Source: Patescibacteria group bacterium
Lineage (GTDB): Bacteria; Patescibacteriota; JABMPQ01; JAQVVF01
Direction: 5' to 3'
Length of the DNA: 64,000 nt
NCBI GenBank assembly: GCA_041662665.1
Contig: JBAZSC010000001.1
Location: forward strand, 257,511 to 321,510
The position numbers were made by a program, and so were the translations under genes. This document shows positions 6,784 to 49,926 of this stretch, piece by piece. The stretch's first letter is position 1. Every line of letters begins with the position of its first letter. The notes beneath the pieces are model-generated. The model had not been told where the DNA came from. It saw only the letters and a program-made list of their open reading frames with translations, and searched no databases.

Positions 6784-6868
6784 TATAAATATAATATATT
6801 GTTTTGATTAAGTCAGGTTTAATACTTGACTTAATTTAATTAATATATTAATATATTTTTATTGGTTT

Positions 6869-7125
6869 GCACCTTTCCCGGAGCCAGCAAGAGGCTCCAT
6901 CACCAGGAGGAAAAGCAGAATGGCAGCTGAGACCAAGACCCCGTCCTACGACTTCGTTCCCGCAACCTCCGCCAACGGTGGTCGGATCTTCGCAGTGGTC
7001 GAGACCACCAAGATCGCTACCCCCCATGAAGGAGGTTCGGACAAGCCGGAGAACGTGAGGCCCTGCAAGAGCAGGACGATTCACGGGCGGGGCAAGAAGC
7101 AGTAAGCTTCAGCTCTAGATTAATT
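6869..7125. other. GC-anomalous island (about 60% GC in a 30% GC context); candidate structured RNA or acquired micro-gene
   Basis: Every frame on both strands is open (ORFs 6848-7084, 6867-7058, 6920-7105, 7017-7253). AGGAGG at 6905-6910 sits 9 nt before the ATG at 6920 of a 61-codon ORF with GC-rich third positions. Local hairpins include GGAGCC/GGCTCC and GGTGGTC/GACCACC. Confidence 0.4.
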
Positions 7126-7245
7126 GTTTTTTGTAAAATACACGTTCTTTTTTTAACCATATAGTCCGATTCGTCGGGCTCTTTTTTTGGCCTCACTCGA
7201 ATGCTTTTTCGAATATTTCGAATGCCATAGTATTGTAATTTATCA

Positions 7246-7270
7246 TTTTTCATTTATAATTTAGTTATTC
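7246..7270 (+). promoter_or_regulatory. conserved 24-nt tRNA-associated motif ATTTTTCATTTATAATTTAGTTATT (contains a perfect TATAAT); copy 1
   Basis: Sits 6 nt upstream of tRNA-Ser(GGA). An identical 24-mer is at 12185-12211 and a close variant at 8215-8243. Confidence 0.5.
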
Positions 7271-7275
7271 GCAAT

Positions 7276-7360
7276 GGAGAGGTCGCATAGTGGCCTAGTG
7301 CGCAGGCTTGGAAAGCTTGTATATCGAAAGATATCGAGGGTTCGACTCCCTCCCTCTCCG
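7276..7360 (+). tRNA. tRNA-Ser (anticodon GGA)
   Basis: Manual fold: acceptor GGAGAGG/CCTCTCC, anticodon stem CAGGC/GCTTG with loop TTGGAAA, long variable arm, T-arm GAGGG-TTCGACT-CCCTC, discriminator G. CCA is not encoded. Confidence 0.85.
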
Positions 7361-7495
7361 TCTTCGCCCGCCGAAGCTTTAGCAAAAGCGAAGGCGGGAA
7401 AGATGAGTATTTAAATTAATATCTGTTTTTTTATAATTCTTGGGCGGGCTTCGACGGACAAAGTCCGCTTCTACTGATGCTTTAGCGAAGGTGGA
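7361..7495 (+). repeat. tRNA-Ser 3'-flank unit with GCTTTAGC-type hairpins (family B); copy 1
   Basis: The flank contains CCCGCCgaaGCTTTagcAAAGCgaaGGCGGG, then atatctgttttttt, then GGCGGGCTTCGACGGACAAAGTCCG. A near-identical block follows the second tRNA-Ser at 8336-8450. Confidence 0.7.
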
Positions 7496-7528
7496 TTCAA
7501 TAATAAAAATTATAGAATTTTAAAAGTT

Positions 7529-8158
7529 ATGTTTAGCAATACAAAAACAAAGATTAAAGAATTATCGTCTTATAATTTTTTTGCTACATTAATTGTTGTT
7601 AATGTAGTTTTTATTTTTCTTGGACTAATTTTTTATAATGGCAATTTTAATTTTTGGTCATATCCGTTTAGTTATCTCAGCGATGTCAAAACAGTTGACG
7701 GAATACAAAATAATATATCATCAATTATTTACAGTTTTGAGATGTTTACTAGTGGAATGATAATGATCAGCTTATTTTACAAATTCTACAAAAATAATTA
7801 TAGAAAAAAAGATCTTTTTATTCTAATATTTACATTTCTATGTTCTTCAGGTTTTTTGATTGCATGTTTTAGTCCAGATGATTCTCGGCAATATCTTCAT
7901 ATCTTTGGTTCAGCTCTAGTTGTAGCTTCACTTTGGCTAATTGCTACAAAATATTTATTTAATTTAAAAAAAGATTTAAAACAATTCAAGTATTATTTTT
8001 GGCAGACAATTTTGCAATTTTCCGTTTTTTCTTATGGTCTGACATATTTATTCAGAATCGAACCTCTTGCAACAATCTTGCAAAAATTTGCCTTTCTTGG
8101 GCTTGGCCTAGCTTTACTTTATGCTACTTATTTTGAAAAAAAGTTAAAAAATAAATAA
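7529..8158 (+). CDS. hypothetical membrane protein (about 6 TM helices)
   Basis: 209-aa ORF lying between the two tRNA-Ser units. Hydrophobic segments throughout and no motif recognised. Confidence 0.4.
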   Translation: MFSNTKTKIKELSSYNFFATLIVVNVVFIFLGLIFYNGNFNFWSYPFSYLSDVKTVDGIQNNISSIIYSFEMFTSGMIMISLFYKFYKNNYRKKDLFILIFTFLCSSGFLIACFSPDDSRQYLHIFGSALVVASLWLIATKYLFNLKKDLKQFKYYFWQTILQFSVFSYGLTYLFRIEPLATILQKFAFLGLGLALLYATYFEKKLKNK

Positions 8159-8214
8159 ACTCTTGAAAAATCGATTATACTAAGGTACCATTGACTTAGT
8201 CGAGAAGTTAATTT

Positions 8215-8243
8215 TGTTATTTTTCATTTAGTTATTTAAAATT
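8215..8243 (+). promoter_or_regulatory. tRNA-associated motif, variant copy (tgttaTTTTTCATTTAGTTATTtaaaatt)
   Basis: Sits 6 nt upstream of tRNA-Ser(TGA) and shares TTTTTCATTTA..TTAGTTATT with copies 1 and 3. Confidence 0.45.
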
Positions 8244-8248
8244 ATTCT

Positions 8249-8335
8249 GGAGAGGTGCCTGAGCGGCCGAAAGGACTAGTCTTGAAAACTAGCGCAGCCT
8301 CACGGTTGCCGTGGGTTCGAATCCCACCCTCTCCG
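8249..8335 (+). tRNA. tRNA-Ser (anticodon TGA)
   Basis: Acceptor GGAGAGG/CCTCTCC, anticodon stem CTAGT/ACTAG with loop CTTGAAA, long variable arm, T-arm GTGGG-TTCGAAT-CCCAC. It is a paralog of the tRNA at 7276. Confidence 0.85.
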
Positions 8336-8450
8336 TCTTCGCCCGCCGTAGCTTTAGCAAAAGCGAAGGCGGGATAGCTAAGTAAAAAAGTCAATATCTG
8401 TTTTTTTGTATTTCACAGGCGGGCTTCGACGGACAAAGTCCGTTTTTTGG
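8336..8450 (+). repeat. tRNA-Ser 3'-flank unit (family B); copy 2
   Basis: tcttcGCCCGCCgtaGCTTTAGCaaaagcgaaGGCGGG ... GGCGGGCTTCGACGGACAAAGTCCG. It is collinear with 7361-7495. Confidence 0.7.
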
Positions 8451-8461
8451 AGGGTGAAATA

Positions 8462-8709
8462 ATGCATTATGTTTATATTTTAGAAACGAAATTTAACAAA
8501 TTGTATATTGGATGTACTTCAGATATTAAAAAAGATTAATCCGGCATCAAAATGGTCACGTAATAGCAACAAAGAATCTCAGACCAATAAAATTAATAAG
8601 TTATATTGTTTTAAAAAATAAATATACAGCCTTTAAGCTTGAAAAATATTTTAAATCTGGATCCGGTAGAGCATTTATAAGAAAACATTTTTTTTATGAA
8701 AATCATTAA
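8462..8709 (+). pseudogene. small GIY-YIG nuclease family gene with a -1 frame break inside an A6 run
   Basis: Frame 1 reads MHYVYILETKFNKLYIGCTSDIKK then stops. After the A-run at 8528-8533, frame 2 continues RLIRHQNGHVIATKNLRPIKLISY...FKSGSGRAFIRKH. Together these give the GIY-(10)-YIG...R..H.N architecture. Confidence 0.55.
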
Positions 8710-8953
8710 AAAAGCATGGCCAGATTTATTTAAACAAGTCAAAGCTGGTAATAAAAATTTTGATCTTCGGCTTGCTGATTTTAAAATTAAAAAAGGCGAT
8801 ACCTTAATTTTAAAAGAATATAATCCAAAGACAAAAAAATATACTGGCAAAGAAATTTCCAAAAAAGTAAAATTCATTTTAAAAACAAAAGACATCAAAT
8901 TTTGGACTCAAAAAGAAATTAAAAAACATGGTTTTCAAATAATTTCATTTTAA
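8696..8953 (+). CDS. DUF3850 / ASCH-like small protein
   Basis: 85 aa. KAWPDLFKQVKAGNKNFDLRLADFKIKKGDTLILKEY matches the DUF3850 pattern (E.IKSGKKTFE.R.ND..F..GD.L.L.E). Confidence 0.5.
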   Translation: MKIIKKAWPDLFKQVKAGNKNFDLRLADFKIKKGDTLILKEYNPKTKKYTGKEISKKVKFILKTKDIKFWTQKEIKKHGFQIISF

Positions 8954-8979
8954 AAATAAAAATAATTAACAAAAAAATT

Positions 8980-9717
8980 ATGTTAAAAAACAAAACCGCT
9001 ATTGTAACTGGCGCTGGCCAAGGAATTGGCAAGGGAATAGCTTTGGCATTAGCAAAAGAAGGCTGTAATGTTGTCGTTTCAGACATTAATCAAGAAACTT
9101 GCGAACAAGTTGTTGCAGAAATCGTAAAATTAGGAGTCCAATCTATTGCCATAAAATGTGATGTTTCAAAAAAGGCAGAAGTTGATAATCTTGCAAAAGT
9201 TGCTTCTGAAAAATTTAATCAAATCAATATTTTAGTTAACAATGCTGGTATTTTTCCGTCTATACCATTTGCCAAAATGACTGAAGCTGATTGGGACAAA
9301 GTGATAGACATTAATTTAAAGAGCATGTTTTTAACTTCCCAAGCAATATCTTCAGAAATGCCAGAAGGTGGAAAAATAGTTGATATTTCGTCGATCGCAT
9401 CAATTGTTGGTTTTGAAGGATTAGTCCATTATTGTGCTTCGAAAGGTGGAGTGAATGGTATGATTAGAGCCTTAGCTCTTGAACTAGCTCCAAAAAAAAT
9501 CAATGTTAATGCTGTTGCGCCAGGTATGATTAAAACTCCAGGAGCGACACAAGTAATGGATGAAAAAGCCCTGGCGCAAATGATTGCCATGGTTCCTCAA
9601 AAAAGAATTGGAACACCTGAAGATATTGCTAATGCAGTTGTCTTTTTAGCTTCTGATAAATCAGATTATATCACTGGCCAAGTAATTGTTGTCGATGGTG
9701 GCTGGACATTAAGATAA
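8980..9717 (+). CDS. SDR-family NAD(P)-dependent oxidoreductase (FabG-like)
   Basis: Cofactor motif TGAGQGIGKG at the N-terminus, NNAG motif, and YCASKGG (catalytic Y..K). Length 245 aa. Confidence 0.8.
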   Translation: MLKNKTAIVTGAGQGIGKGIALALAKEGCNVVVSDINQETCEQVVAEIVKLGVQSIAIKCDVSKKAEVDNLAKVASEKFNQINILVNNAGIFPSIPFAKMTEADWDKVIDINLKSMFLTSQAISSEMPEGGKIVDISSIASIVGFEGLVHYCASKGGVNGMIRALALELAPKKINVNAVAPGMIKTPGATQVMDEKALAQMIAMVPQKRIGTPEDIANAVVFLASDKSDYITGQVIVVDGGWTLR

Positions 9718-12296: not shown

Positions 12297-12360
12297 CCGT
12301 GTCCGCCGATTTATCTGCCGAAGCTTTAGCATAGGCAGAAGCTTTAGCGAAGGCGGAATA
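12297..12360. repeat. family B repeat block (two GAAGCTTTAGC units with GGCGG/CCGCC stems)
   Basis: gtgTCCGCCgatttatctgccGAAGCTTTAGCataggcaGAAGCTTTAGCgaaGGCGGAatac. Confidence 0.6.
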
Positions 12361-12405: not shown

Positions 12406-14007
12406 CTATAGGTGCGATCGCTTGATCATGGCGTATCTCTCCATTGCTTCAACCAAGATAACAGGCAACAACTCCAGATGATCCATCCAAATGTATTCAG
12501 AAGTTCCATGAATATTCTGTGCTCCATTCCACATGTTTGGTCCAGGCAAATCTGGCAAATCCATATTCGCTATGCCAACATCTGTACCACCTCGAGCATC
12601 AAATTCTTTCATGATCATATCAAACATTGCCATCGCTTCACGCAATGGCTCCAGTACCCAAGGATGAGCCTGAATTGCATACTTGATATTTCGGTAATAC
12701 TTTTTCTTGTTAGTCAAAACTTCCAAAAGTCCAGAAAAATGATCATTTGTTTTCAGATCATCTGCCAGTTTACAGAGCAGTGCTACTAGCTGTTCAGCTT
12801 CCTCTTCATCAAATGTCCTTGGAATAGAATTCACCACAACCTTTTCCGGATTTTCCATCTTCACGCTATCAACCCAGCAAAATGACTGCTTATCCTTGCT
12901 CCTCCATGGCGGTACTGTATTATGGTGAACTGCCGACACGTAATAACACGCAGCAAGCAAAGCAGGCCAGACTTGAAATTCTTTCTCGCCAGAATATTCC
13001 GAAATAATATATTCAAGACCAACATTCAAAGCATCAGCTTCTCGCGTAAAGCTCTTCAACAAATTAACACTAATGCATGCTTTGTCAAAGAAAATATCAA
13101 CTTCAGATTTCACAGTTGACAAACTCTTGATCTGAATATAGAAACCAAGCTTTTTTGTGTCCAATACTTTTCTGACAAAATGCGACGCTGCATACTTGGC
13201 ATCAGCCAGATTACCGCCATCTAGTCCAGGATGAGCGCTTCTTCCAGTAAAGACCAAAGACATCTTTGTATTAACTCTGTCTTTGCTAACTTTAATGCCT
13301 TTGCTTTCAAAAGTTGCTGTTACCTTATTGCCGATGAAACAACCAACATCAACGATCGGTGGTTTTCCGCCATCAACTGTCAACAAAACATCGCGGTGGC
13401 GATCGGGCAACATGTTCGCATTGAATATGCCTTGCTCTTCATCAGGAAAGAAAAGAAGCTCAATTGGTCCATGCGGATGCTCTTCTTCATCGCTCAACAA
13501 TCTGGCAACTGCTTCCATAATTCCAGCCAATCCAGCTTTACAGTCAGCACCAAGCAAAGAGTCTCCACTACTTGTGATGATTCGCTGACCAAAACGATGC
13601 TCTCGATTCTTGCCATCGTCAAACAATACAACCTTTTTGCCTGTCTCTGGATCTGCGAGTGGGAGCTCAATTGGCTTGCCATCAAATCGATGAATCAACG
13701 GCTTGACATCTCCAGAAGCATCTGGAGCAGTATCAAAGTGTGCTGACAAAGTTACAACAACAGCAGCATTAAAACCAGGTGTTGCTGGAATCAAACAATC
13801 CAAAATACAAGTATCACTCAAATGCGGCTTCAGACCCATTGCTTCCAATTCAGATTTGACGAGTCTTGCCAATGTCCATTGTCCTTCGCTTGATGGTGAA
13901 GTTTCTGATTCGCAAGATTGAGTATTAATTCGAACACAGTCCAAAAAACGATTTACAACCGGTGACCACATTCCAAACATCGGATCTCTTTCGTCAACTT
14001 CGATCAT
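12406..14007 (-). CDS. M20-family metallopeptidase, peptidase T (tripeptidase)-like; GC-elevated gene
   Basis: HFDTAPDASGDV, SLLGADCKAGLAGIMEA, LLFFPDEEQG and FDARGGTDVG...NIHGTSEYI match PepT/M20B metal-binding blocks. GC is about 45% against a 30% background. GAGGAGGAAGAGAG lies immediately upstream of the ATG, with the hairpin ACGCTCCTA-AGG-TAGGAGCGT upstream of that. Confidence 0.6.
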   Translation of the reverse strand: MIEVDERDPMFGMWSPVVNRFLDCVRINTQSCESETSPSSEGQWTLARLVKSELEAMGLKPHLSDTCILDCLIPATPGFNAAVVVTLSAHFDTAPDASGDVKPLIHRFDGKPIELPLADPETGKKVVLFDDGKNREHRFGQRIITSSGDSLLGADCKAGLAGIMEAVARLLSDEEEHPHGPIELLFFPDEEQGIFNANMLPDRHRDVLLTVDGGKPPIVDVGCFIGNKVTATFESKGIKVSKDRVNTKMSLVFTGRSAHPGLDGGNLADAKYAASHFVRKVLDTKKLGFYIQIKSLSTVKSEVDIFFDKACISVNLLKSFTREADALNVGLEYIISEYSGEKEFQVWPALLAACYYVSAVHHNTVPPWRSKDKQSFCWVDSVKMENPEKVVVNSIPRTFDEEEAEQLVALLCKLADDLKTNDHFSGLLEVLTNKKKYYRNIKYAIQAHPWVLEPLREAMAMFDMIMKEFDARGGTDVGIANMDLPDLPGPNMWNGAQNIHGTSEYIWMDHLELLPVILVEAMERYAMIKRSHL

Positions 14008-14490: not shown

Positions 14491-15735
14491 ATGTTAACAT
14501 TTTTAATCATTCTTACTTCCATCCTAACCTTAATTTGCTCAGGCCTTGCTTATTATCTTATTAAGATTAATAAAAAGCTAGCGGAGCCAGAAAGCAATGA
14601 AAATGACAAAATCTTGCATGAGCGAATTGATAATTTAAATCAATATGTTTCTCAAAATTTAAATCAAACTAACAAATCAATTTCCGAAAATTTAAATCAA
14701 GTCACAAAAACAATGCTTGCTCAAATTAGTTCTCAAACTAGTCAGCTAAATGCCAGGTTAAATGATCAGACAGGTCAGCTTAATGAAAGATTAAAAGAAA
14801 ATAGCGAGCTAATCCAAAAATCTCAAGGCAATGTTGGCTCGCGTCTTGATAATGCTGCCAAAGTTGTAAGTTCTGTTCAATCAAAATTAGCCCAAATGGA
14901 AGAATCCAACAAAAAGATTTTTGAAGTTGGCAAAGATATTAGGGGATTGCAAGAAATTTTGAAAGCTCCAAAATTAAGAGGCTCTTTGGGAGAATTATTT
15001 TTGGGCGATTTATTATCTCAGACTTTTTCTAAAAATCATTATCAAGAACAATACATGTTTAAATCTGGTGAAAAAGTTGATGCTGTTATCAAATTAAAAG
15101 ATAATATGCTTGTTCCAATTGATGCTAAATTTCCTTTAGAAAATTTTCACAAAATGATTAATTTAGCCAAGAATGATCAAGAGAGAAAACAATATAAAAA
15201 AATGTTTAAAGATGATGTCAAAAAACATATTACTGCAATTTCCAAAAAATATATTTTACCTGATGAAGGCACAATTGATTATGCTTTGATGTATATTCCA
15301 GCAGAAAATGTTTATTATGAAACAATAATCAGAGACGAAGATGAAAATAATTTAGTTAATTTTGCTTATACGAAAAAAGTTTTTCCAGTCTCACCAAATT
15401 CATTATATATTTATGTCCAAGCAATTTTGCTTGGCTTAAAAGGCATGCAAATTGAAGAAGGAGCTAAAGAAATTTTGCATAATTTAAAAAGACTGCAAGG
15501 CGATTTTTCAAGATTTGGCGAGGAATTCAAAGTCTTAGGCAGTCACTTAAATAATGCAACAAAAAAATATAATGAAAGTGATAAAAGATTAGGCAAGTTT
15601 AATGATAAATTAGCTGAGATAAATTATGATGTTACAAACAAACCAGAAAAATTAGTTGAAACAAAAGCTTTGCCAATCAAACCAGAAGTTGCAGTACCTG
15701 TCAGTACACAAGAAAGTATAAATTTATATAATTAA
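14491..15735 (+). CDS. rmuC: DNA recombination protein RmuC-like
   Basis: N-terminal TM helix, then a long coiled-coil. Motif LKAPKLRGSLGELFLGDLL resembles the RmuC nuclease-fold core. Length 414 aa. Confidence 0.6.
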   Translation: MLTFLIILTSILTLICSGLAYYLIKINKKLAEPESNENDKILHERIDNLNQYVSQNLNQTNKSISENLNQVTKTMLAQISSQTSQLNARLNDQTGQLNERLKENSELIQKSQGNVGSRLDNAAKVVSSVQSKLAQMEESNKKIFEVGKDIRGLQEILKAPKLRGSLGELFLGDLLSQTFSKNHYQEQYMFKSGEKVDAVIKLKDNMLVPIDAKFPLENFHKMINLAKNDQERKQYKKMFKDDVKKHITAISKKYILPDEGTIDYALMYIPAENVYYETIIRDEDENNLVNFAYTKKVFPVSPNSLYIYVQAILLGLKGMQIEEGAKEILHNLKRLQGDFSRFGEEFKVLGSHLNNATKKYNESDKRLGKFNDKLAEINYDVTNKPEKLVETKALPIKPEVAVPVSTQESINLYN

Positions 15736-15736
15736 A

Positions 15737-16384
15737 ATGATCACTGCAATAATTTTTGACATGAATGGGGTAATAATAAATGATGAAGCCATTCATGAAT
15801 TAGCTTTTAAAGAAGTTTGTAAAAAATACAATATTATTTTAACGTCTCAAGGCTACAAGGATTTATGCATGGGCAAAACTGATGAGCAAGGTTTTATTGA
15901 AATAATTAAAAAATACAAATTAGATAATGTTAAAATAAGTAATTTAGTTGAACAAAAATCAACAAAATATTTAGAATTAATTCCAAAAAATATCAAAAGT
16001 TATCCAGGAGTTATTGATCTAATAAAAAAACTTCATAAAAAATTTATTTTAGCTTTAGCATCTAGTTCTAGTCGCCAAGAAATTGAAATGGTTTTGAATT
16101 ATTTTAAAATTAAAAAATTATTTAAAATAATTATTAGCGCTGATGATATTTCAAAAAGCAAGCCAGACCCAGAACCTTATCTTTTAACTACCAAAAAAAT
16201 TAACCAAAAACCAGAAAATTGTTTAGTTATTGAAGATTCAAAAAGTGGAATAATGTCAGCAAAAAGAGCTGGTATGAAATGTATTGCCATAACAACAACA
16301 CATAATGAAAAAGAATTAGTCGGTGCTGATGTTATCATAAATAAATTTTCAGAAATTACCGAAAAAATGATTCAAAATGTTTAA
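15737..16384 (+). CDS. HAD-superfamily hydrolase (subfamily IA, beta-phosphoglucomutase-like)
   Basis: DxD motif I IIFDMNGVII, motif II ALASSSS, and motif III-IV K...EDSKSG. Confidence 0.7.
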   Translation: MITAIIFDMNGVIINDEAIHELAFKEVCKKYNIILTSQGYKDLCMGKTDEQGFIEIIKKYKLDNVKISNLVEQKSTKYLELIPKNIKSYPGVIDLIKKLHKKFILALASSSSRQEIEMVLNYFKIKKLFKIIISADDISKSKPDPEPYLLTTKKINQKPENCLVIEDSKSGIMSAKRAGMKCIAITTTHNEKELVGADVIINKFSEITEKMIQNV

Positions 16385-16396
16385 AAAATAGCAATT

Positions 16397-16489
16397 TCTA
16401 CCCAGCTTTAGCTGAGGGGTGTTGGAGCTTTAGCTCCAGCGAACGAATAGGGCTAAAGCCCTGCGACCCCTTGGCTAAAGCCAGGTAGA
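16397..16489. mobile_element. MITE-like element (93 bp) with about 21-bp terminal inverted repeats; copy 1
   Basis: TIRs TCTACCCAGCTTTAGCTGAGG ... CCTTGGCTAAAGCCAGGTAGA. The interior is made of GGAGC-ttta-GCTCC and GGGC-taaa-GCCC hairpins. A second copy with the same TIRs and a different interior is at 49927-50033. Confidence 0.55.
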
Positions 16490-16505
16490 AAATAAATAAA
16501 ATCTT

Positions 16506-17324
16506 ATGCCCGAAAAACCACAAATAGAATTACAAGATATTCAACAAAATCCTGAACAAAAATCTGAAACAGGTTTAGAAATTGTAAAAACTCCAGAATC
16601 AGAACAATTTGTTGAACATGTCAATGAAATTCATGAAGCAGTACAACGTGATAGGAAAGTTACATATGGCCAAGTTGCAGATTTAAGAAAAGATTTAGAA
16701 GGATTTAAATTAGATGTTTGTGGCGAGCAAATGACTTTGGCAGAAATCAGAGAAATTCCAGATTTCGGATATAATTATGAAATTTGGAAATCTATAATGG
16801 AAGGAAATATTTTTTTACATAACCAAGTTACTGGTCTTATTCCTAACGTAACTCGAAAGTTAGTTGATGAAAATAATAAAAAAAACGAAAAGATCAGTAA
16901 TCAGGATGATTGGAAAGCTTTATATTTTGATTCTTTAAAAAAAATTTCACCTAAGATAGCAAAGGAATTTAGAAGTCTTAAGTCAGGAATCTATTTGAGT
17001 ACATTTACAGAACTTTCCGATGAAGTTATATTCGAGTTGTCCCATTCAGCTAGTTTATTTATTTCTTTAAGTCATCTAGTATCATTATCTGATCAGCAAG
17101 CAGAATATTTGTCTCAATTTCAAGGTAGGCTCAATTTAAACGGTGTCAATTCTTTATCGGACAATGCTGCGCGATTTATCGGGCAACGTGGTTCTTATAC
17201 TTGGTTAGATAGTCTAGTCCATATCTCTGATAATGGATTGAAATTTTTAGGTAAAGGGAGAATCGATCTATCTCCAGAGTTGGGAAAAAGATTAAAGAAA
17301 TTAAAAGCTGAACAAAATGCTTAA
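16506..17324 (+). CDS. paralog family P (conserved about 95-aa N-domain plus RI-type LRR-like about 25-aa repeats), member 1
   Basis: N-domain PEKPQIELQDIQQ..ETGLEIVKTPESEQFVEH.NEIHEA....K.TYGQVADLRKDLE is shared by five genes. C-terminal repeats follow L..L.SLSD..A..LS...G.L.LN...SLSD.AA. Confidence 0.6.
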   Translation: MPEKPQIELQDIQQNPEQKSETGLEIVKTPESEQFVEHVNEIHEAVQRDRKVTYGQVADLRKDLEGFKLDVCGEQMTLAEIREIPDFGYNYEIWKSIMEGNIFLHNQVTGLIPNVTRKLVDENNKKNEKISNQDDWKALYFDSLKKISPKIAKEFRSLKSGIYLSTFTELSDEVIFELSHSASLFISLSHLVSLSDQQAEYLSQFQGRLNLNGVNSLSDNAARFIGQRGSYTWLDSLVHISDNGLKFLGKGRIDLSPELGKRLKKLKAEQNA

Positions 17325-17375
17325 AGATTTTAACTTACAATAACGCCAAGCCGTCATAAAAAATAAATTAAAATT

Positions 17376-18239
17376 ATGTCCGAAAAACCACCAATAGAAT
17401 TAAAAGATATCGCCCAAGAATCAGAACCAAAATCTGAAACAGGTTTAGAAATTGTTGAAACTCCAGCATCAAAACAATTTGTTGAACATGCCAATGAAAT
17501 TCATGAAGCAATAGAACATGATAAAAAAATTACATATGGCCAAGTTGCAGATTTAAGAAAAGATTTAGAGCAATTTAAATTTGATGTATGTGGTGAGCAA
17601 ATGACTATTGCAGAAATAAAACAAATACCAGATTTTCAACATAATTATGAAATTTGGAAAAAAATAATGTCTGGAGAATTAATTAGTCGATGGAGCCAAA
17701 ATGAAGAAGATCTTACTTATCTTTTGCCAAAGGTGGCACAAGTTCTAGTTGAAGAATATAATAAAAAAAATGAAGAAACTTTCAAAATACATGATTATGG
17801 CGTTGAAGATCTTATGGACTTAAAGCTAAGCAACATCAAAAGAATCACTCCTGATACAATAAAAAATTTTAAAGATTTTAAAGCTAATATTTTTTTAGAT
17901 GGTTTGACCGAAATATCTGACGAATCAATGCTCGAATTATCAAAATCTTCAAGTTACCTTATTTCATTATCAAGCTTAACGTCTTTATCGGACAAACAAG
18001 CAGAATATTTATCTCAATTCAATGGCGGTAGATTATACTTAAATAGTATAAAATCACTTTCAGATTATGCTGCAAATAAATTTGCGCACAGCAAAGTTAC
18101 GTACGTATTATTAAGAGGTGTAGAAACTATTTCCGATTCTGCTCTTTTGCAGTTAGAAGGAACAAAAGTTGTTCTATCTGATACACAAAAAGAAAGGCTA
18201 AAAAGTTTAAAAGCCAAACAAAATGCTTCAAGATCTTAA
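17376..18239 (+). CDS. paralog family P, member 2
   Basis: About 85% nucleotide identity to member 1 over the first 300 nt. The same LRR-like C-terminal repeats are present. Confidence 0.6.
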   Translation: MSEKPPIELKDIAQESEPKSETGLEIVETPASKQFVEHANEIHEAIEHDKKITYGQVADLRKDLEQFKFDVCGEQMTIAEIKQIPDFQHNYEIWKKIMSGELISRWSQNEEDLTYLLPKVAQVLVEEYNKKNEETFKIHDYGVEDLMDLKLSNIKRITPDTIKNFKDFKANIFLDGLTEISDESMLELSKSSSYLISLSSLTSLSDKQAEYLSQFNGGRLYLNSIKSLSDYAANKFAHSKVTYVLLRGVETISDSALLQLEGTKVVLSDTQKERLKSLKAKQNASRS

Positions 18240-18282
18240 TCTAGAACAAACGCCAAGCCGTCATAAAAAATAAATTAAAACT

Positions 18283-18921
18283 ATGCCAGAACAACCATCG
18301 CAAGTAGAATTAAAAGATATTCAACAAACGAAAGAAACAGAATCTGAAACAGGTTTAGAAATTGTTAAAACTCCTGAATCAGAACAATTTGTTGAACATG
18401 CCAATGAAATTCATGAAGCAATGCAAGCTGATGGGAAAATAACTGCTGGCCAAGTTGCAGATTTAAGAAAAGATTTAGAAGGATTAAAATATGATTTTTA
18501 CGGAGAACAATTATCAATTGCCGAAATCAGGCAAATCCCAGATCTTCAACATAATTTAAAAATTTGGCAAGAAATTTCTAATGGAAAATTTCGTAATTAT
18601 AAGGAATTAACTTATTTAACTCCAGAAATTGCTCAGAAAATTGTTTATCCCGCCTCAATCAAAAGAGTCGGTCACGCACCTATTCCACTTATCGATTTTC
18701 CACCCAGAGATTTATATTTAAACAACTTAAAAACATTATCTGTCGAATCGGCAAGGATATTGTTGAGGAGATTGTCAACAGGTGATCGAATACTTTCTCT
18801 TCAAGGTTTAGTAGATTTCCCTGAAGAAGAATTAGGATTATTAGATGATCCAAATATTCATTTGTCCCGAGAGCTTACATTAAAGTTGATTGAAAAAAAA
18901 GAAGAGATGGGTTTAATTTAA
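18283..18921 (+). CDS. paralog family P, member 3 (shorter, divergent C-terminus)
   Basis: Shares the N-domain with members 1 and 2. The stop lies 3 nt before the helicase ATG. Confidence 0.55.
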   Translation: MPEQPSQVELKDIQQTKETESETGLEIVKTPESEQFVEHANEIHEAMQADGKITAGQVADLRKDLEGLKYDFYGEQLSIAEIRQIPDLQHNLKIWQEISNGKFRNYKELTYLTPEIAQKIVYPASIKRVGHAPIPLIDFPPRDLYLNNLKTLSVESARILLRRLSTGDRILSLQGLVDFPEEELGLLDDPNIHLSRELTLKLIEKKEEMGLI

Positions 18922-18924
18922 AAT

Positions 18925-21900
18925 ATGTTAAAAGATCTTAATACAGAACAACTCCAAGCCGTCAAACACGAAACAGGTCCACTACTTATCGTTGCCGGCG
19001 CTGGCACAGGAAAAACAACAGCCATTACTAAAAAATTGGCTTATTTAATTTTGGAAAAAAAAGTAAAGCCAGAAAATATTTTAGCGTTAACTTTTACTGA
19101 AAAAGCAGCTGCTGAAATGGAGGAGCGAGTAGACAAATTAATGCCTTATGGTTATACAGATTTATGGATTGAAACCTTTCATGGTTTTTGTGATCGAATT
19201 TTAAAAGATAACGCCTTAGATGTTGGCTTAGACCCAAATTACAAATTATTAACTTCTGCAGAACAATGGATGTTCATCAAATCCAAAATTTTTGATTTTG
19301 ATTTGAAATATTATAGACCATTAGGCAATCCTAATTCATTTATTTCAGAATTAATCAAACATTTTTCTCGCGCTAAAGATGAAAATATCTTGCCAGAAGA
19401 TTATTTGAAATTCGTCAAAAAACTATCCGCCTCCGCTCCTGCGGGAGCTTCGGCGGACAAAGAAACCATAGACAAAATGTCAGAAGTTGCCAAATCTTAC
19501 AAAAAATATCAAGAATTAATGGTCGCCGAAAGTCAGATGGATTTTGGTGATTTAATTATTGAAACATTAAAATTATTTAAAAAAAGAAAAAATATTCTAA
19601 AAAAATATCAAAAACAATTCCAATATATTCTAGTTGATGAATTTCAAGATACTAATTTTGCCCAATATCAATTATTGCAACTTTTAGCACCGCCACAAAA
19701 TAATTTAACTGTTGTCGGCGATGATGACCAATGCCTGCCTCCTGATTCCAAAATTGAAACAAAAACTGGAATAAAGAAAATAAATAAAATAAAAAAAGGA
19801 GAATTAGTTTTATCAGCAGTGGGCAAGGGACATACCTCTTATTATCAAGTTAATAAAGTTATCAAAAATAAAAAAAATGCTCGTTTCCTAAATATTTCAA
19901 CAAAAAATGGAAATAAAATTACAATTACTGATAATCACAAAATGTTTTGCTTTGTACCTTTAAAATCAGATAAAAAATATTACTATGTTTATTTAATGGA
20001 AAAAAGAAATTTAGGATATAGGCTTGGCATAACTAACGATTTAGCGACGCGATTAAGATTAGAACGAGGGGCTGATCGAATTATTGGTATTAAGTCCTTT
20101 AAATCAGAAATTGAAGCAAGATATTATGAAACATTGCTTTCATTAAAATATCAAATTCCTTTAACCTGTTTTTGTTTCCGTCCTGGAGTTTTTATGAATA
20201 AGGAACTGTTAGAAAAACTTTACCAAGAATTTGATACTTATAAAAATGCGGAAAGATTAGCCAAAGATTTAAAAATTGATTTATCAGCTCATCATTTTGC
20301 GTTAGATGCAGTTAATCGCGGTAGCAGTTTAAGAATAAAAATCATAATTGAACAGTGTTACCGTAAACATGTTAGCAAAGTCAGAAGAGGCATCCTTTTT
20401 GGACCCAAAATCAGTCATTCTGTAATAGTAGAAACATCGGACAAGAAAACTATTGAAACACTAAAGAAAAATGGTTTTAATTTAAGAAAAGCAAGAAAAA
20501 ATGGTTTTAGGTTTAAATATACAGATCAAGATTTTCAAAAAGTTGGACAAATCGCTTTAAAATTAGAAAAAATTACAGGCGGTATTTTAGAAACCAGATT
20601 TGAAGTTGGCGCATTAAATATTAAACACCGAAAAGCCTTGATGATGCCAGCCAAAAATTTGCTTGTTGGACATTTTTTACCTGTATTAAAAAAAGACAAT
20701 AAAGAAATTATTTATGATGAAATAATTGATATCAAAGAAAAAAATAAGACTAGCAATGTCTATGATTTAGAAATCGAAAAAACACATAATTTCATTGCTG
20801 ATAATATTGTTGTGCATAATTCTATCTATAAATTTCGCGGCGCTTCTGTTAGCAATATTTTGCAATTCCAAAAAGATTTTCCCAAAAGCAAAAAAATAGT
20901 TTTGACAGAAAATTATCGATCAGTTCAGCCAATTCTCGATTTAGCATATAATTCAATTCAATTAAATAATCCAGATCGGTTAGAAGCAAAATATAAAATC
21001 AATAAAAAATTAAAATCACAAATTAAATCTAAAAGCGATTTAGCAATCAATCATATCCATAAGGCAACATATGAGCAAGAAGCAGTTGATGTCATCAAAA
21101 ATATTATTAATCTAAAACAAAAAGATAAATCAACTTGGTCAGATTTTGCAATTCTAGTGCGCGCAAATTCTTCTGCTGAAATATTCATCAATCTTTTATC
21201 TTCAAAAAAAATTCCATATCAATTCATTGCATCTCGCGGACTTTATTCTCGCCCAGAAATTATGGATTTAATTTCGTATTTGCGTGTTGTTGCAAATTTT
21301 TATGATAATATTAATTTTTATCGCGTTTTAAGTTTGCCAATTTTTAAATTAAATTCAGAAGATATAATTAGACTTGTTGCCTATAGCCGTCGTAAAAATT
21401 TAAGCATTTTTGATTTAGCTTGCACACCAAGTCGAATTGTCGGACTGAATAAAGATAGTGTTGAAAAATTTAAAGTTGTTGTTGAACTAGTTAAAAAACA
21501 TGCAAAACTTAGTTTGGAAAAAAATGCCGCTGAAGTTTTGTTAGACTTTTTAAAAACATCCGGTTATTTAAAATATTTGCAAACCAATAAAGATTTAGAA
21601 GCAGAAAAAAAGATTTTGAATATCTCATTATTTTTCAAAAGAATCCAAGAATTGCAGGAAAATAAAAAATTAACTGTTCCAGAATTTATTGATCAATTAG
21701 ATTTGATGATTGAAGCAGGCGAGGATCCATCGCCAATCCAATTAGATGAAGGCCCAGATTCAATCAAAATTTTGACTATCCATTCTTCAAAAGGATTAGA
21801 ATTTGATAATGTTTTTGTCGTCAATATGGTTGAAGGAAAATTTCCATCTCGAAACAGAAAAGATTTAATTGAATTGCCAGAAAAATTAATTAAAGAGCAA

Positions 21901-22902
21901 TTGCCAGATTCAAATTCCAATATTCAAGAAGAAAGAAGACTATTTTATGTAGCAATGACTCGTGCAAAGAAAAGGTTATTTTTTACATCTGCCAATGATT
22001 ATGGCGGAAAAAGAAAAAAGAAAATTTCTAGATTTTTAGTTGAAATTAAAAAACATTTTGATAAAAATTCCGCGTTTTCTGCGTTAGATTCTGCGTGTTT
22101 CCGCGATAACAATATTTTAACGCAGAATAACGCTGAACCTAACGCAGAAAACGCGAAAAAGAAAATAAGATATTCTTTACCAAGTAAATTTTCATACACT
22201 CAGCTTAAAGCATTTGAAACTTGTCCGCATCAATACCGTTTCCGCCATATTATTGGTTTGCCAAGTTCAGGCGCTTCTTCTCAAAGTTATGGAAAAACAA
22301 TGCATGCAGTTTTGCAAAACTTTTTCGCTGATTTGCAAAAAGGAAAAAGTCCGACAGAAAAAGATTTATTAAGTTATTATGACAGTTTTTGGATCGATGA
22401 TTTTTATCAAGACAAAAAGCACGAACAAAAAAGATTTGAAGAAGGCAAGAAAGCTTTGCAAGAATTTTACAAAATAAATAATAAAAATTTAAAAGCGCCG
22501 TTATTTTTAGAAAAAGGCTTTAACCTAAGAATTAAAGACACATGTCTAAAAGGCCAGATTGATCGCATTGATAAATTAGATGATGGCACAGTTGAGATCG
22601 TTGATTATAAAACAGGCAAATTGCCAAAGAATGAAAAGGAAGTAGAGAAAAATGAGCAATTATTGATTTATTCTTATGCCTGCCAAAAAGTATTAAATTT
22701 AAAACCATCAAAACTAAGCCTTTATTTTATTGACCAAAACAAAAAATATTCTGCTAAACAAAATTCAATTAAAGAAGAAAAGATAATTCAAAAAGTCCAA
22801 GAACTAATTGCTAAAATTAAAGAATCAGAATTTATTGCCAAGCCAGGCTTTGCATGCAAATTTTGTGACTATAAGGATATCTGTGAACATGCTAAACATT
22901 GA
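18925..22902 (+). CDS. UvrD/PcrA-type SF1 helicase fused to a C-terminal RecB/Cas4-like PD-(D/E)xK nuclease with Cys cluster; intein-containing
   Basis: Walker A GAGTGKTT, motif III VVGDDDQ|...|SIYKFRGA split by the intein, and TENYRS. The C-terminal CPHQYRF...IDRIDKL...IVDYKTGK...CKFCDYKDICEH is an AddB/Cas4-like nuclease with four Cys. Confidence 0.8.
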   Translation: MLKDLNTEQLQAVKHETGPLLIVAGAGTGKTTAITKKLAYLILEKKVKPENILALTFTEKAAAEMEERVDKLMPYGYTDLWIETFHGFCDRILKDNALDVGLDPNYKLLTSAEQWMFIKSKIFDFDLKYYRPLGNPNSFISELIKHFSRAKDENILPEDYLKFVKKLSASAPAGASADKETIDKMSEVAKSYKKYQELMVAESQMDFGDLIIETLKLFKKRKNILKKYQKQFQYILVDEFQDTNFAQYQLLQLLAPPQNNLTVVGDDDQCLPPDSKIETKTGIKKINKIKKGELVLSAVGKGHTSYYQVNKVIKNKKNARFLNISTKNGNKITITDNHKMFCFVPLKSDKKYYYVYLMEKRNLGYRLGITNDLATRLRLERGADRIIGIKSFKSEIEARYYETLLSLKYQIPLTCFCFRPGVFMNKELLEKLYQEFDTYKNAERLAKDLKIDLSAHHFALDAVNRGSSLRIKIIIEQCYRKHVSKVRRGILFGPKISHSVIVETSDKKTIETLKKNGFNLRKARKNGFRFKYTDQDFQKVGQIALKLEKITGGILETRFEVGALNIKHRKALMMPAKNLLVGHFLPVLKKDNKEIIYDEIIDIKEKNKTSNVYDLEIEKTHNFIADNIVVHNSIYKFRGASVSNILQFQKDFPKSKKIVLTENYRSVQPILDLAYNSIQLNNPDRLEAKYKINKKLKSQIKSKSDLAINHIHKATYEQEAVDVIKNIINLKQKDKSTWSDFAILVRANSSAEIFINLLSSKKIPYQFIASRGLYSRPEIMDLISYLRVVANFYDNINFYRVLSLPIFKLNSEDIIRLVAYSRRKNLSIFDLACTPSRIVGLNKDSVEKFKVVVELVKKHAKLSLEKNAAEVLLDFLKTSGYLKYLQTNKDLEAEKKILNISLFFKRIQELQENKKLTVPEFIDQLDLMIEAGEDPSPIQLDEGPDSIKILTIHSSKGLEFDNVFVVNMVEGKFPSRNRKDLIELPEKLIKEQLPDSNSNIQEERRLFYVAMTRAKKRLFFTSANDYGGKRKKKISRFLVEIKKHFDKNSAFSALDSACFRDNNILTQNNAEPNAENAKKKIRYSLPSKFSYTQLKAFETCPHQYRFRHIIGLPSSGASSQSYGKTMHAVLQNFFADLQKGKSPTEKDLLSYYDSFWIDDFYQDKKHEQKRFEEGKKALQEFYKINNKNLKAPLFLEKGFNLRIKDTCLKGQIDRIDKLDDGTVEIVDYKTGKLPKNEKEVEKNEQLLIYSYACQKVLNLKPSKLSLYFIDQNKKYSAKQNSIKEEKIIQKVQELIAKIKESEFIAKPGFACKFCDYKDICEHAKH
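19426..19462 (+). repeat. family B nested-hairpin repeat inserted in-frame in the helicase CDS
   Basis: TCCGCCtccGCTCCtgcgGGAGCttcGGCGGAcaaag encodes SASAPAGASADKE. It is architecturally identical to the intergenic 27905-27941 CCCGCCttcGCTCCtcgtcatttGGAGCtacGGCGGG. Confidence 0.55.
19732..20820 (+). mobile_element. intein (363 aa) inserted in helicase motif III, with putative homing-endonuclease domain
   Basis: Begins with Cys (CLPPDSKIETKTG) right after VVGDDDQ and ends VVHN before S of SIYKFRGA, so excision restores the canonical VGDDDQSIYKFRGA. The internal YYYVYLMEKRNLGYRLGITNDLATRL is GIY-YIG-like. Confidence 0.75.
22068..22158 (+). repeat. CTGCGTT-unit palindromic repeat (family A) inserted in-frame in the helicase CDS
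   Basis: ccgCGTTttCTGCGTTagattCTGCGTgtttccgcg...AACGCAGAAtaacgctgaacctAACGCAGAAAACGcg. It translates in-frame as SAFSALDSACFRDNNILTQNNAEPNAENAKK, lying between the helicase and nuclease parts. Confidence 0.65.
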
Positions 22903-28066: not shown

Positions 28067-29689
28067 TTATTCTGTCACTGCAATTGATGGAATTTCATCA
28101 GATCCGCGATCTGAAGTCATCTGGAAAAAGATCATCATTGCGAGCGATTGCTTGTCAGAGGTCAGGCTGTGGTAGAATTCACGCCAAGCCTTGCCTTGCT
28201 GTGAAGCATTTCGCATCTCAATGATTTCTTCAATCTGTGTTTGCAATTCTTGCTTTCCGGAAAGCATCTGATTGATGAACGTATCACGACGCTCTTCAAT
28301 CAAATCTTCGACTACAGAAGCAAGATAATCAAAATCCACAACATTCGAATCAACATGAAGACAAAAATCTCGATCGTCAGTATAGACCTCGAGCTCAATC
28401 TCGGGATAATGAGCTCTGATCCTAGCGACGATTTCTGCAGTATCCAAAAGGTCAACGCTCTGGAAGCCGGTGTTATAGATCACGAGCTGATTACGCTCTT
28501 TGTGACCAGTAACAACGAAATCCACGCGCTTTTTTCCAATTGGATACAAATCATTTGGTTCAATGTAAGGAGGCTTGCTGAAAAAGAATCTTGCAGTCTG
28601 TCCATTTACTCTGGACTGACTGAAATCTCCAACAAAATAGCTGATGCCATAACGGTTTACATAGCGACCCTTCTGCGATTCATTCAAGTTATAGCCAAAC
28701 ATTTCTCGAACTGAAAAGAAAGCTTCGATGCAGTAAAAAGCAGCTTGAACAGATTCTGCATAGAAGGCATGATCTCTTGAGCCGCCTGGTGTTACGCGAT
28801 AATTCATCCCTCGCATCAGGTTAGTGATGCCATAGAGATTATTCATCTCGTAATGAGGCCTGCCATCAAAAGGTCTGCCGTTGTCTTTTGCATCAATGAA
28901 ATCAGTCATGATTTGGATATGCTCGAAATTCGGAAGCTTAGTCAAGCGATCATTGTGAGCTCTGAATACCAGTCCAGTTGCAGACCAAGGCTGGTAGTAG
29001 AAAACTCTTCTGCCCTTCTGAAATTCTTCAGTACTGTAAGGGATATATTCATCTCCAATGCCCTTGCAGATAACAAGAGTCTGATCATCATATTCAGGGA
29101 AATGTCCATCATCATCTACGAATTCAACAAATACTTTGTCACGATCGAAAGAGAAAAGTTTGAAACTTTCGATCATTTTGTTCTTTACTGCAGACAGTCG
29201 CTTTGTTCTCAATGAGTTATCATTCAAAACAAAAACAACTCTCTTTGCATCTTCATTTGTTACTGTCTTAAGATTGGCATGATGATCATAATGAAACACT
29301 CTTTGTCCAGCCTTGAACTTTTCAGCAGTCCATGGGTCGAACTTGCATCCTGTATCAAGGTTAATGATCATTACGCGCGATCTTTTGACCGTGTTTCGAG
29401 CTACTGAAATTTCTGACTTTCCATCTGATTCTTCTTCATCATCAACATATGAAAGAAAACGTCCGAGTCCTGCATGGAAAAATCCATATTCAGTGTATGT
29501 CTCTCCGTTTTTCACAAACAACAAAATAATTCTAGCATCCATATTCGACAAACCAAAAGCTCGGCAAAACATGTCAAATGCACCTGCAACATCTCGATCT
29601 GGTGAGACATGTCCAACGAGAAGAATGAAATCCAAATGCAAATAATAAAACAAGTCTTTCAGTGCCATCTCGTCCTCCTTTGGATTCAA
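28067..29689 (-). CDS. DHH-family phosphoesterase-like protein with long uncharacterised C-terminal region; GC-elevated gene
   Basis: N-terminal motifs HLDFILLVGHVSPDRDVAGAFDM (DHH motif I, with PDRD in place of PDGD), VMIINLD and VFHYDHHAN (DHH motif III). A possible degenerate DHHA1 GGSRDH is present. GC is about 45%. AAAGGAGGACGAG lies immediately before the ATG. Confidence 0.45.
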   Translation of the reverse strand: MNPKEDEMALKDLFYYLHLDFILLVGHVSPDRDVAGAFDMFCRAFGLSNMDARIILLFVKNGETYTEYGFFHAGLGRFLSYVDDEEESDGKSEISVARNTVKRSRVMIINLDTGCKFDPWTAEKFKAGQRVFHYDHHANLKTVTNEDAKRVVFVLNDNSLRTKRLSAVKNKMIESFKLFSFDRDKVFVEFVDDDGHFPEYDDQTLVICKGIGDEYIPYSTEEFQKGRRVFYYQPWSATGLVFRAHNDRLTKLPNFEHIQIMTDFIDAKDNGRPFDGRPHYEMNNLYGITNLMRGMNYRVTPGGSRDHAFYAESVQAAFYCIEAFFSVREMFGYNLNESQKGRYVNRYGISYFVGDFSQSRVNGQTARFFFSKPPYIEPNDLYPIGKKRVDFVVTGHKERNQLVIYNTGFQSVDLLDTAEIVARIRAHYPEIELEVYTDDRDFCLHVDSNVVDFDYLASVVEDLIEERRDTFINQMLSGKQELQTQIEEIIEMRNASQQGKAWREFYHSLTSDKQSLAMMIFFQMTSDRGSDEIPSIAVTE

Positions 29690-42121: not shown

Positions 42122-42206
42122 TCTTTGTTTGAAACACAAAACCGACTCTCGTCGGTTTTTTCTTTGTCCGCCGTAGCTTTAGCGGAGGCGGATTCTTTGT
42201 AACTAT

Positions 42207-42264: not shown

Positions 42265-42267
42265 GAA

Positions 42268-49923: not shown

Positions 49924-49926
49924 AGT

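Follow-up and report, generated by a model that had tools for sequence, protein, structure and literature searches.

Bacteria of the candidate phyla radiation (CPR) are ultra-small, unicellular and poorly understood episymbionts in which few defence or host-interaction systems have been recognised. Two described groups of proteins bear on the genes reported here. One is the cysteine-containing (CC) class of leucine-rich repeat (LRR) proteins, whose GALA-like repeat is 24 residues long, against 26 in the classical type, and reads aliphatic-T/G/S-D in its positions 5-7 (Kajava et al. 2008, PMC2244805). The other comprises the pairs of a MoxR-class ATPase and a vWA protein, in which the target protein contributes an acidic residue to the metal of MIDAS, the vWA adhesion site that depends on metal ions (PMC9976466); the statistics compiled for such systems left out CPR genomes (Kaur et al. 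2020, PMC7159879). Here we analyse a stretch of 64,000 nucleotides (the window) from the metagenome-assembled genome of a Patescibacteria group bacterium (locus tags WC663_), which contains a tandem array of three genes for LRR proteins, P1 to P3, directly upstream of a helicase gene, and two further family members, P4 and P5, upstream of a MoxR-class ATPase/vWA gene pair. The explanation that accounts best for the data as a whole, and that we regard as probable, is that the array is a copy-variable satellite of a family whose members serve as a third component linked to the ATPase. The array and its borders are laid out as follows.

14491-15735, plus strand: RmuC
15737-16384, plus strand: HAD hydrolase
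16506-17324, plus strand: P1, 272 aa, with N-domain, 24-residue LRRs and basic tail; N-domain hidden Markov model E 4e-43; stop codon 8 nt inside stub 1
17317-17356, plus strand: stub 1, a dead copy of helicase nt 1-40, with the mini open reading frame (ORF) MLKDFNLQ-stop
17357-17375, plus strand: junction and leader TAAAAAATAAATTAAAATT, where the duplicated unit has its left end
17376-18239, plus strand: P2, 287 aa; LRR fold in an AlphaFold model with a mean predicted local distance difference test (pLDDT) score of 85.8; stop codon 17 nt inside stub 2
18223-18263, plus strand: stub 2, again a dead copy of helicase nt 1-40 but 1 nt longer through an insertion, reading MLQDLNLEQTPSRHKK-stop
18264-18282, plus strand: second copy of the junction and leader
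18283-18921, plus strand: P3, 212 aa, shorter and with a different C-region; stop codon 3 nt before the helicase ATG
18925-18964, plus strand: live helicase start, the source of the stubs
18925-22902, plus strand: UvrD/PcrA-type helicase fused to a PD-(D/E)XK nuclease, 1325 aa, with an intein at 19732-20820

A sequence-only reading of the window had described three consecutive paralogs with a common N-domain, and this description was correct: a 5' block of 300 nt, encoding ~100 aa, is shared by P1 to P3 at 85% and 77% ungapped identity (81-85% in global alignment). The same reading had noticed that the start of the helicase gene recurs after members 1 and 2. We could confirm this, since stub 1 matches the live helicase start at 31 of 40 positions and stub 2 at 34 of 41, and the frame of stub 2 (ATG CTT CAA GAT CTT AAT CTA GAA CAA) indeed reads MLQDLNLEQ. 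The objection that such a likeness might be limited to A/T-rich low-complexity sequence is answered by the G+C-rich 11-mer CCAAGCCGTCA, which stands without mismatch at the end of both stubs and in the live start and nowhere else in the 64 kb, while only 0.42 matches would be expected in the window even with one mismatch allowed. An assembly artefact is ruled out, because L003, a contig assembled independently with MEGAHIT, shows 100% identity over 5316 nt that include part of P1, P2, P3 and the helicase, and because the junction recurs in another genome (L040, see below).

The stubs resemble the helicase starts of related genomes more closely than that of their own. Stub 1 matches the starts in the relatives L013, L036 and L040 at 35 of 40 positions, and stub 2 matches these three at 35-37 of 41, the value of 37 being reached with L013 and L040. 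Both stubs also retain AACGCC (Arg), whereas the live helicase now has AACTCC (Leu). The stubs are thus fossils that preserve ancestral bases. The sequence following stub 1 is the same as that following stub 2 and is related to the one following the stub in L040, and the junction and leader TAAAAAATAAATTAAAATT resembles the leaders upstream of P1 and of the P gene of L013. The last 15 nt of both stubs (AACGCCAAGCCGTCA; 17342-17356 and 18249-18263) are identical to the helicase genes of L013 and L040 and changed in the live helicase; either chance or constraint may have kept them as they are. A search for microhomology at the original breakpoint gave nothing convincing.

The origin of the array becomes apparent when related genomes are compared. 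A helicase scan of species-representative genomes gave 34 loci, to which L040 was added by looking up family member P0035. The relevant intervals between RmuC and the helicase are the following.

L036: helicase with 90% aa identity to that of the window; the RmuC stop overlaps the helicase ATG; no P gene
L013: helicase 83%; one P gene (279 aa), whose last 17 nt lie inside the helicase ORF (...QNATRS-stop over MLQDLN...)
L040: helicase 88% (95% to L036); two P genes with a 40-nt helicase stub between them, the second overlapping the live helicase by 8 nt
Window: three P genes and two stubs

The four related genomes therefore have 0, 1, 2 or 3 P copies in this interval, and L036 and L040, with none and two, are merely 5% apart in their helicase proteins. 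The stub of L040 reads ATGCTCAAAGATCTTAATCTCCAACAACGCCAAGCTGTCA and continues into ATAAAATATAAAT...ATG; its right-hand junction is the one found in the window. Moreover, P2 retains the 17-nt overlap seen in L013, and P1 the 8-nt overlap seen in L040. As the stop codon of the ancestral P gene lay inside the helicase ORF, any duplicate of the whole gene necessarily took the helicase start along, and as the junction is common to two species, it arose once, and later copies inherited it via recombination between units. The array began from one P gene squeezed in between RmuC and helicase, and it has since expanded, contracted and been lost. The proposal of the sequence-only reading that the duplicated unit consists of a paralog plus a helicase 5' stub, and that the array grew by recombination, is borne out and can be refined: the unit begins ~19 nt upstream of the P start codon and ends with nucleotide 40 of the helicase gene, where the breakpoint fell by chance, and thus comprises a short leader, P and 40 nt of helicase. 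We are highly confident of this evolutionary account, covering both the origin of the stubs and the dynamics of the array. Tentatively, the unit may also carry a scrap of RmuC, as the leader after the L040 stub shares AAAATATAAAT with the RmuC 3' end.

Two other ways of building such an array were considered. An integron-type cassette array is rejected, because there is no attC-like element between the genes, the sole palindrome lies upstream of P1, and no integrase was found among ~45 annotated ORFs. As for a diversity-generating retroelement, there is no reverse transcriptase in the Pfam-scanned window ORFs and no template-like LRR repeat in 16300-19100; transposases were likewise not found among the scanned ORFs.

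The same organism has a second array, L004, which is known only from short ENA and JGI contigs and has the order HD-domain gene, P, P, stub, P, stub, P. Its stubs (1996-2061 and 2895-2960), beginning MKK(I/V)LIFGTFDLLHPGHLDFLK..., derive from the 5' end of a gene that resembles those for cytidylyltransferases (17 residues match Pfam CTP_transf_like at E 8e-4), and according to locus-tag arithmetic these dead 5' copies are apparently annotated as genes in the public record. Because the stubs of L004 derive from an unrelated gene, stubs of a downstream gene are what tandem duplication generally leaves behind when neighbouring genes touch or overlap, and the helicase stubs are no mark of a partnership. 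A further array was found in another sample, where a 4.7-kb contig (L044, 1-4725) consists solely of six tandem family members with spacers of 0-30 nt.

The P genes evolve in two different ways along their length. Their N-domains group by genome, with identities of 81-85% among P1-P3 and of 84-85% among the P protein of L013 and the two of L040 (L040_Pa and L040_Pb), and of 72-76% between these groups, even though the first duplication predates the split of the lineages, as evidenced by the shared junction. This homogenisation of the 5' parts within genomes points to gene conversion. At the gene pair upstream of the ATPase, the 5' ends of P4 (54919-55001) and P5 (55494-55576) are identical at 82 of 83 nt, compared with ~70% over the first 300 nt, which looks like a recent gene-conversion tract, and other paralogs (cluster 2, for example P0010 and P0011) have near-identical N-termini and differing C-terminal parts. 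The LRR regions are only 23-49% identical at the protein level. Between P1 and P2, the synonymous distance (dS) is 0.24 in the N-domain, whereas the LRR region is saturated, with a proportion of synonymous differences (pS) of 0.68 and a dS of ~1.8. The ratio of nonsynonymous to synonymous distances (dN/dS) is 0.5-0.7 in the N-domain and below 1 throughout. Among the C-regions, those of P1 and P2 are closest to each other (49%) and then to that of the L013 P protein (43-45%). Read by eye, the last ~28 residues of P3 match L040_Pa (...FPEEELGLLDDPNIHLSRELTLKLIEKK against ...MPDESLQLLDSENIKLSSELQKRLQKIK), although over the whole C-region this pair has 37% identity, which is not above other pairs; if the pairing is right, C-region types would occupy different array positions. 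The P genes are therefore mosaics, in which concerted evolution of the 5' ends is combined with diversifying, reshuffled repeat parts.

P proteins consist of a disordered acidic N-terminal peptide, an alpha/beta N-domain of ~80 residues, an LRR solenoid and a short basic tail. In the AlphaFold model of P2, built on 11 paralogs, residues 1-19 have pLDDT values below 50, and regular secondary structure, as assigned by DSSP, begins no earlier than about residue 25. The N-domain is a small alpha-alpha-beta-hairpin-alpha-alpha fold that extends to about residue 100 and is followed by a long helix, and the C-terminal part contains five or six strand-helix units at a spacing of 24 residues. The prediction of a solenoid agrees with the tandem units of 20-30 residues and the LxxLxLxx(N/C/S/T)xL core that characterise the LRR superfamily, and periodicity and fold are kept in every copy. 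The sequence-only reading, which had proposed LRR-like repeats of about 25 residues of the ribonuclease inhibitor (RI) type, was right about the LRRs; the period, however, is 24, which rules out the RI type with its alternating repeats of 28 and 29 residues. Instead, the 24-residue length, the aliphatic-T/G/S-D motif, frames such as LISLSSLTSLSDKQAEYLSQFNGG and the family-wide consensus L.GLTSLSD.AAE.LS.H.G place the repeats in the GALA-like CC type. Consistent with this, the nearest solved structures are GALA-type LRR effectors of Ralstonia and Legionella, at 12-17% sequence identity. The P repeats contain no GAxALA signature, having AAExLS as the helix motif instead, and no F-box or other Pfam domain was detected.

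Searches of Pfam, NCBIfam, PADLOC and PHROGs returned nothing meaningful for P1-P5, and the N-domain has neither a Pfam, NCBIfam or PDB relative nor a fold match; these ~100 aa define a new protein domain. An exhaustive profile search of 1.84 billion representatives retrieved 134 clusters (at 50% identity) with the N-domain, 76 of them at E<=1e-10, or 137 sequences when the organism's own paralogs are included. The proteins are 74-438 aa long, nearly all have the N-domain at the N-terminus, and many end in ...QI.KFKKK. The most conserved residues are G73, D49, E25 and N90, with Glu25 present in 82% of the 137 members. This residue precedes helix 1, in a segment for which confidence is limited (pLDDT 74 for residues 21-30 in the full-length model, below 50 for residues 23-25 in a model of the N-domain only). 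By direct reading, the P proteins have no signal peptide or membrane segment. The family is specific to CPR, being confined to Patescibacteria; homologues of the repeats alone occur in other uncultured bacteria, no relatives were found in viral contigs, and a metagenome scan returned the contig of the source organism only. A genome scan with a degenerate pattern derived from the family alignment gave no match, the pattern being too narrow. The organism itself has at least 12 paralogs in a genome of ~645 kb (contig of 645,164 bp). We found no paper on LRR families in Patescibacteria.

The second locus of the window, where the sequence-only reading had correctly placed the same family upstream of an AAA+/vWA pair, contains the following genes.

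54913-55485, plus strand: P4, 190 aa, a family member at the core locus
55485-56651, plus strand: P5, 388 aa, family member
56678-58567, plus strand: MoxR-class AAA_5 ATPase, 629 aa, with an N-terminal extension of ~290 aa (Pfam AAA_5, 1.4e-14)
58660-60591, plus strand: HExxH/vWA partner protein, 643 aa, with a C-terminal vWA domain and an intact MIDAS (DVSGSM)

The best PDB sequence relatives of the ATPase, for which 56 homologues were found, are NorQ and CbbQ, and as these are its nearest solved relatives, it belongs to the MoxR class. Its partner protein is composed of an N-terminal motif region, a coiled or low-complexity linker and the vWA domain, which was matched in 4/5 orthologues (best E 7e-5), with DVSGSM and HExxH invariant. 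The N-terminal third contains the invariant motifs GEIxHExGH and NCxEDPRMERxxGGP, which suggests, by motifs alone, a zinc-peptidase-like domain. In every locus, an orthologue of the partner (40-81% identity) adjoins the AAA gene. The inspection covered six AAA loci, namely that of the window and five fetched neighbourhoods.

L045 (the L013 genome), AAA 80%: ThrRS, five P genes, AAA, and the vWA protein split in two ORFs
L046, AAA 61%: P, AAA, P, P, vWA
L048, AAA 56%: AAA, three P-like genes, vWA; other flanks (patatin ... IMPDH)
L049 (Peribacteraceae), AAA 51%: AAA, P (411 aa), vWA, with overlapping stops and starts; again other flanks
L050, AAA 40%: vWA, AAA, and four tandem WD40 paralogs (4840-9365) with a common N-terminal region of ~100 aa

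P genes are thus found in or beside the AAA_5/vWA operon in 5/5 loci with at least 51% AAA identity (the window, L045, L046, L048 and L049), so that the linkage noted in the window holds in its relatives: it persists down to 51% ATPase identity and through three flanking contexts. At L050, the WD40 paralogs follow the same architectural logic as the LRR family with a different repeat. Homology between their N-terminal region and the P N-domain is not demonstrable (hhalign probability 5%), and an EAIxxDxxVTxxQ-like motif shared in the N-domain comparisons is only suggestive. No paper was found on an AAA_5/HExxH-vWA operon in CPR.

On this basis we propose that P proteins are diversifying, concertedly evolving third components, either adaptors or clients, of a MoxR-class ATPase system, a proposal to which we give about an even chance. 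By analogy with NorQ/NorD, CbbQ/CbbO, RavA/ViaA and Midasin, in which the ATPase remodels a bound protein (PMC9976466, PMC7159879), the common N-terminal peptide or N-domain of P is predicted to dock on the vWA/ATPase pair, and the vWA MIDAS metal might receive its sixth ligand from Glu25, a nearly invariant residue of the disordered N-terminus. The solenoid of divergent LRRs would bind differing protein targets and so provide specificity, the ATPase would remodel the complex of P and its target, and the HExxH domain could possibly cleave P or its cargo. Satellite arrays such as that at 16506-18921 would enlarge the repertoire of LRR specificities, with proteins of the own cell, of the host cell or of phages as candidate targets.

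Several observations weigh against this proposal. Docking of P on the ATPase/vWA pair is a prediction by analogy. The N-domain resembles neither the N-terminal extension of the ATPase (hhalign probability 3%) nor the vWA protein (0.3%), which rules out homotypic docking, so that a heterotypic contact would be required. For the HExxH region, neither Pfam nor the PDB gave a match. Because the window, L045 and L046 share their flanks (ThrRS...DnaE), the six loci amount to about three independent contexts, and many family members, such as those of the window array, L004 and L044, lie away from the ATPase. The synonymous saturation of the LRR regions is only partly explained, and repeat shuffling or alignment register may inflate it. 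Finally, the P stop overlaps the helicase start with no terminator between them; co-expression of P and the helicase is therefore likely, and P may have a local role at this locus.

That last point leads to the reading in which the helicase-nuclease downstream draws on the P paralogs as interchangeable cassettes, for specificity or as adaptors, the array diversifying against a fixed partner, as had been supposed from the sequence of the window. The tight packing of the genes on one strand, where they are 3 nt apart or overlap at their stop and start codons, and their adjacency in three related genomes (the window, L013 and L040) agree with it, as does the lack of any terminator-like site in 16300-19100, although the scan concerned (9 promoter-like sites against 11.5 expected, 0 terminators) is uninformative. 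Yet L036, the closest relative by its helicase, has no P gene and an intact helicase, which largely refutes this idea. Among the 34 helicase loci of the scan, L013 is the only one with a P gene within 6 kb, leaving 33 without, while L040, found separately, has two; the linkage is limited to one narrow clade and was lost within it, whereas that of the family with AAA_5/vWA spans a much greater evolutionary distance. The helicase moreover lies in conserved housekeeping synteny (RmuC-helicase-PheS/PheT-GyrB), and the L004 array carries stubs of another gene. We therefore consider a functional tie to the helicase very improbable and infer that it is a mere neighbour, whose adjacency is an accident of tight gene packing. 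The broader supposition that the P proteins are adaptors for ATP-driven machines fails for the helicase and remains plausible for the MoxR-type ATPase only.

Two further readings concern what the proteins do, if anything. P proteins might be exported or surface effectors that bind host-cell proteins, in which case the arrays would be a host-range or antigenic-variation repertoire and MoxR/vWA at most a chaperone for assembly or export. Their nearest structures are GALA-type effectors, the combination of extremely divergent LRRs with a conserved N-terminus is found in many effector families, the copy number varies from 0 to 3 among close relatives, at least 12 paralogs are kept in the ~645-kb genome, and the disordered N-terminus could be a non-classical secretion signal. 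This N-terminus is, however, acidic and polar, without signal peptide or membrane segment, no secretion genes adjoin any array, and the conserved operon partner is an AAA+/vWA pair of cytoplasmic type, so that export seems to us unlikely, though less so than a role with the helicase. It is more doubtful still that the array reflects neutral churn, that is, decaying or functionless duplicates of an orphan gene, whose stubs and variable C-termini result from relaxed constraint. The rather high dN/dS of the N-domain (0.5-0.7), the truncation of P3 relative to P1 and P2, and the loss of the whole array in L036 with no visible consequence would be expected from such decay. But all ORFs are intact, LRR periodicity and fold are preserved in every copy, dN/dS stays below 1, and 134 clusters at 50% identity persist with conserved motifs and tail; furthermore, so small a genome rarely keeps at least 12 useless genes. 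A third component of the MoxR-class ATPase system thus remains the reading that we prefer for the P proteins.

A ~645-kb genome invests at least 12 genes in a single uncharacterised family that is tied to a MoxR/vWA machine across CPR lineages, and the diversifying LRR repertoire, the ATPase and the putative peptidase form a testable candidate for a system of defence or host interaction. One may even speculate, although we hold this to be a long shot, that an undescribed system resembling innate immunity or quality control is widespread in CPR, in which the ATPase and the HExxH/vWA protein are armed by a scattered repertoire of LRR (or WD40) proteins, a split version of the nucleotide-binding LRR receptors (a 'split NLR') that recognises phage or host proteins. 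Sensor (LRR), NTPase and effector peptidase would then be separate polypeptides, with gene conversion keeping the docking ends alike, diversifying solenoids and a rapidly shifting copy number. The stub phenomenon is in itself ordinary, yet it provides a clean and datable record of the birth, resizing and loss of an array in a maximally compact genome, and the record is unusually clean because one junction is common to the genomes with 0, 1, 2 and 3 copies.

Several other features of the window deserve mention. Its helicase is assigned by Pfam UvrD-helicase (1.8e-73), UvrD_C, PDDEXK_1 (1.4e-38) and Intein_splicing and by NCBIfam PcrA. The 363-residue intein (Pfam Intein_splicing, Hint; 19732-20820) splits the protein after motif DDDQ. 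The three nearest orthologues (L036, L013 and L040) lack it, and many distant helicases carry it at apparently the same site, which suggests that it is mobile. The HAD-family hydrolase (15737-16384) between RmuC and the P array is present in the window only, L013, L036 and L040 lacking it there. The chromosome has ~30% G+C, and the remainder of the window is housekeeping: PilM, pyruvate kinase, PPDK, tRNAs, PheS/T, GyrB, NusG, L1, ThyX, Tmk, GatB, MiaA/B, ThrRS and DnaE. Two minus-strand ORFs stand above this background, 12406-14007 (42% G+C), an M20-like peptidase, and 28067-29689 (39%), with a weak DHH match only; both may be foreign acquisitions. ORF 33587-34126, adjoining a CDP-alcohol phosphatidyltransferase gene, matches CarS-like CDP-archaeol synthase (E 9.5e-31) in this bacterial genome. 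An Rfam scan of the window detected five tRNAs and nothing else.

Structured elements are present as well, the most prominent being the following.

16388-16500, no strand assigned: G+C-rich palindromic element of ~110 nt between the HAD gene and P1, one of a small family of intergenic repeats and outside the duplicated unit

Its predicted RNA fold (-59.8 kcal/mol, z -9.0) has long outer arms and two inner hairpins, whose stems show compensatory changes between copies. Another copy lies at 49919-50040, a weaker one at 42196-42275 and a further one in L013 (5062-5172), upstream of its P gene; besides these sites upstream of P1 and of the L013 P gene, the element occurs between convergent genes. 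None was found upstream of the L040 array, and no Rfam family matched. On either side of the L013 copy stand AAATATATAAAT and AAAATAAAT, possibly a duplication of the target, and the element could be REP-like (repetitive extragenic palindromic), MITE-like (miniature inverted-repeat transposable element) or a bidirectional terminator. In addition, short G+C-rich hairpins with a GCTTTAGC or GCTAAAGC apex occur at 19 sites in the window, against 4.2 expected (among them 7351-7400, 8326-8375, 12310-12360, 2335-2365 and 42165-42200); they are mostly intergenic, and near-identical copies lie directly 3' of tRNA genes.

With respect to known systems, the P repeats fit the GALA-like CC-LRR type, but the P proteins are not GALA effectors. 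With the RipG/GALA type III effectors of Ralstonia and with LegL1 of Legionella they have the 24-residue repeat in common, and the aliphatic-S/T-D motif after the beta strand is LSD or ISD in P and Igd, Vtd or ITD in GALA-like proteins. Unlike the effectors, they have no F-box, carry AAExLS rather than GAxALA, possess an N-domain without known relative, occur in CPR bacteria and show no association with type III or IV secretion.

The AAA_5/vWA loci are most reminiscent of two groups of MoxR systems. They share with the MoxR-vWA ternary conflict systems (Kaur, Burroughs, Iyer and Aravind 2020, PMC7159879) the association of a MoxR AAA+ protein, a vWA protein with MIDAS and a conserved third component, as well as strongly diversifying variable parts, adaptor-bearing paralogs scattered in the genome and the occasional fusion of a metallopeptidase to the vWA protein. 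The difference is that the third component is here a separate N-domain/LRR protein in 1-5 copies, while that of the ternary systems is VMAP, iSTAND, FtsH or a propeller-fused vWA. P matched none of these four classes in Pfam, NCBIfam or PADLOC, a comparison that is indirect in that it included no dedicated VMAP or iSTAND profile, and the logic of effector-associated domains (EADs), by which a core component and the scattered paralogs carry one and the same adaptor domain, does not apply here. To NorQ/NorD, CbbQ/CbbO and CobS/CobT, the locus is linked by an ATPase nearest to NorQ and CbbQ, by weak PHROG matches to CobS-like and CobT-like families and, as in NorD, by a C-terminal vWA domain with DxSxS after a long linker. 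In contrast to those pairs, the ATPase has an N-extension of ~290 aa, the partner has an HExxH region, and the neighbourhood encodes no metalloenzyme client but, in its place, a variable set of LRR proteins.

The array itself, finally, has its counterpart in the boundary scars of ordinary tandem duplications, in which the unit ends inside a neighbouring gene, leaves a truncated 5' copy of it, and passes on the junction via unequal crossing-over. Nothing essential differs here; what sets this case apart is its clarity, which it owes to the ancestral overlap of stop and start codons and to the existence of genomes with 0 to 3 copies.

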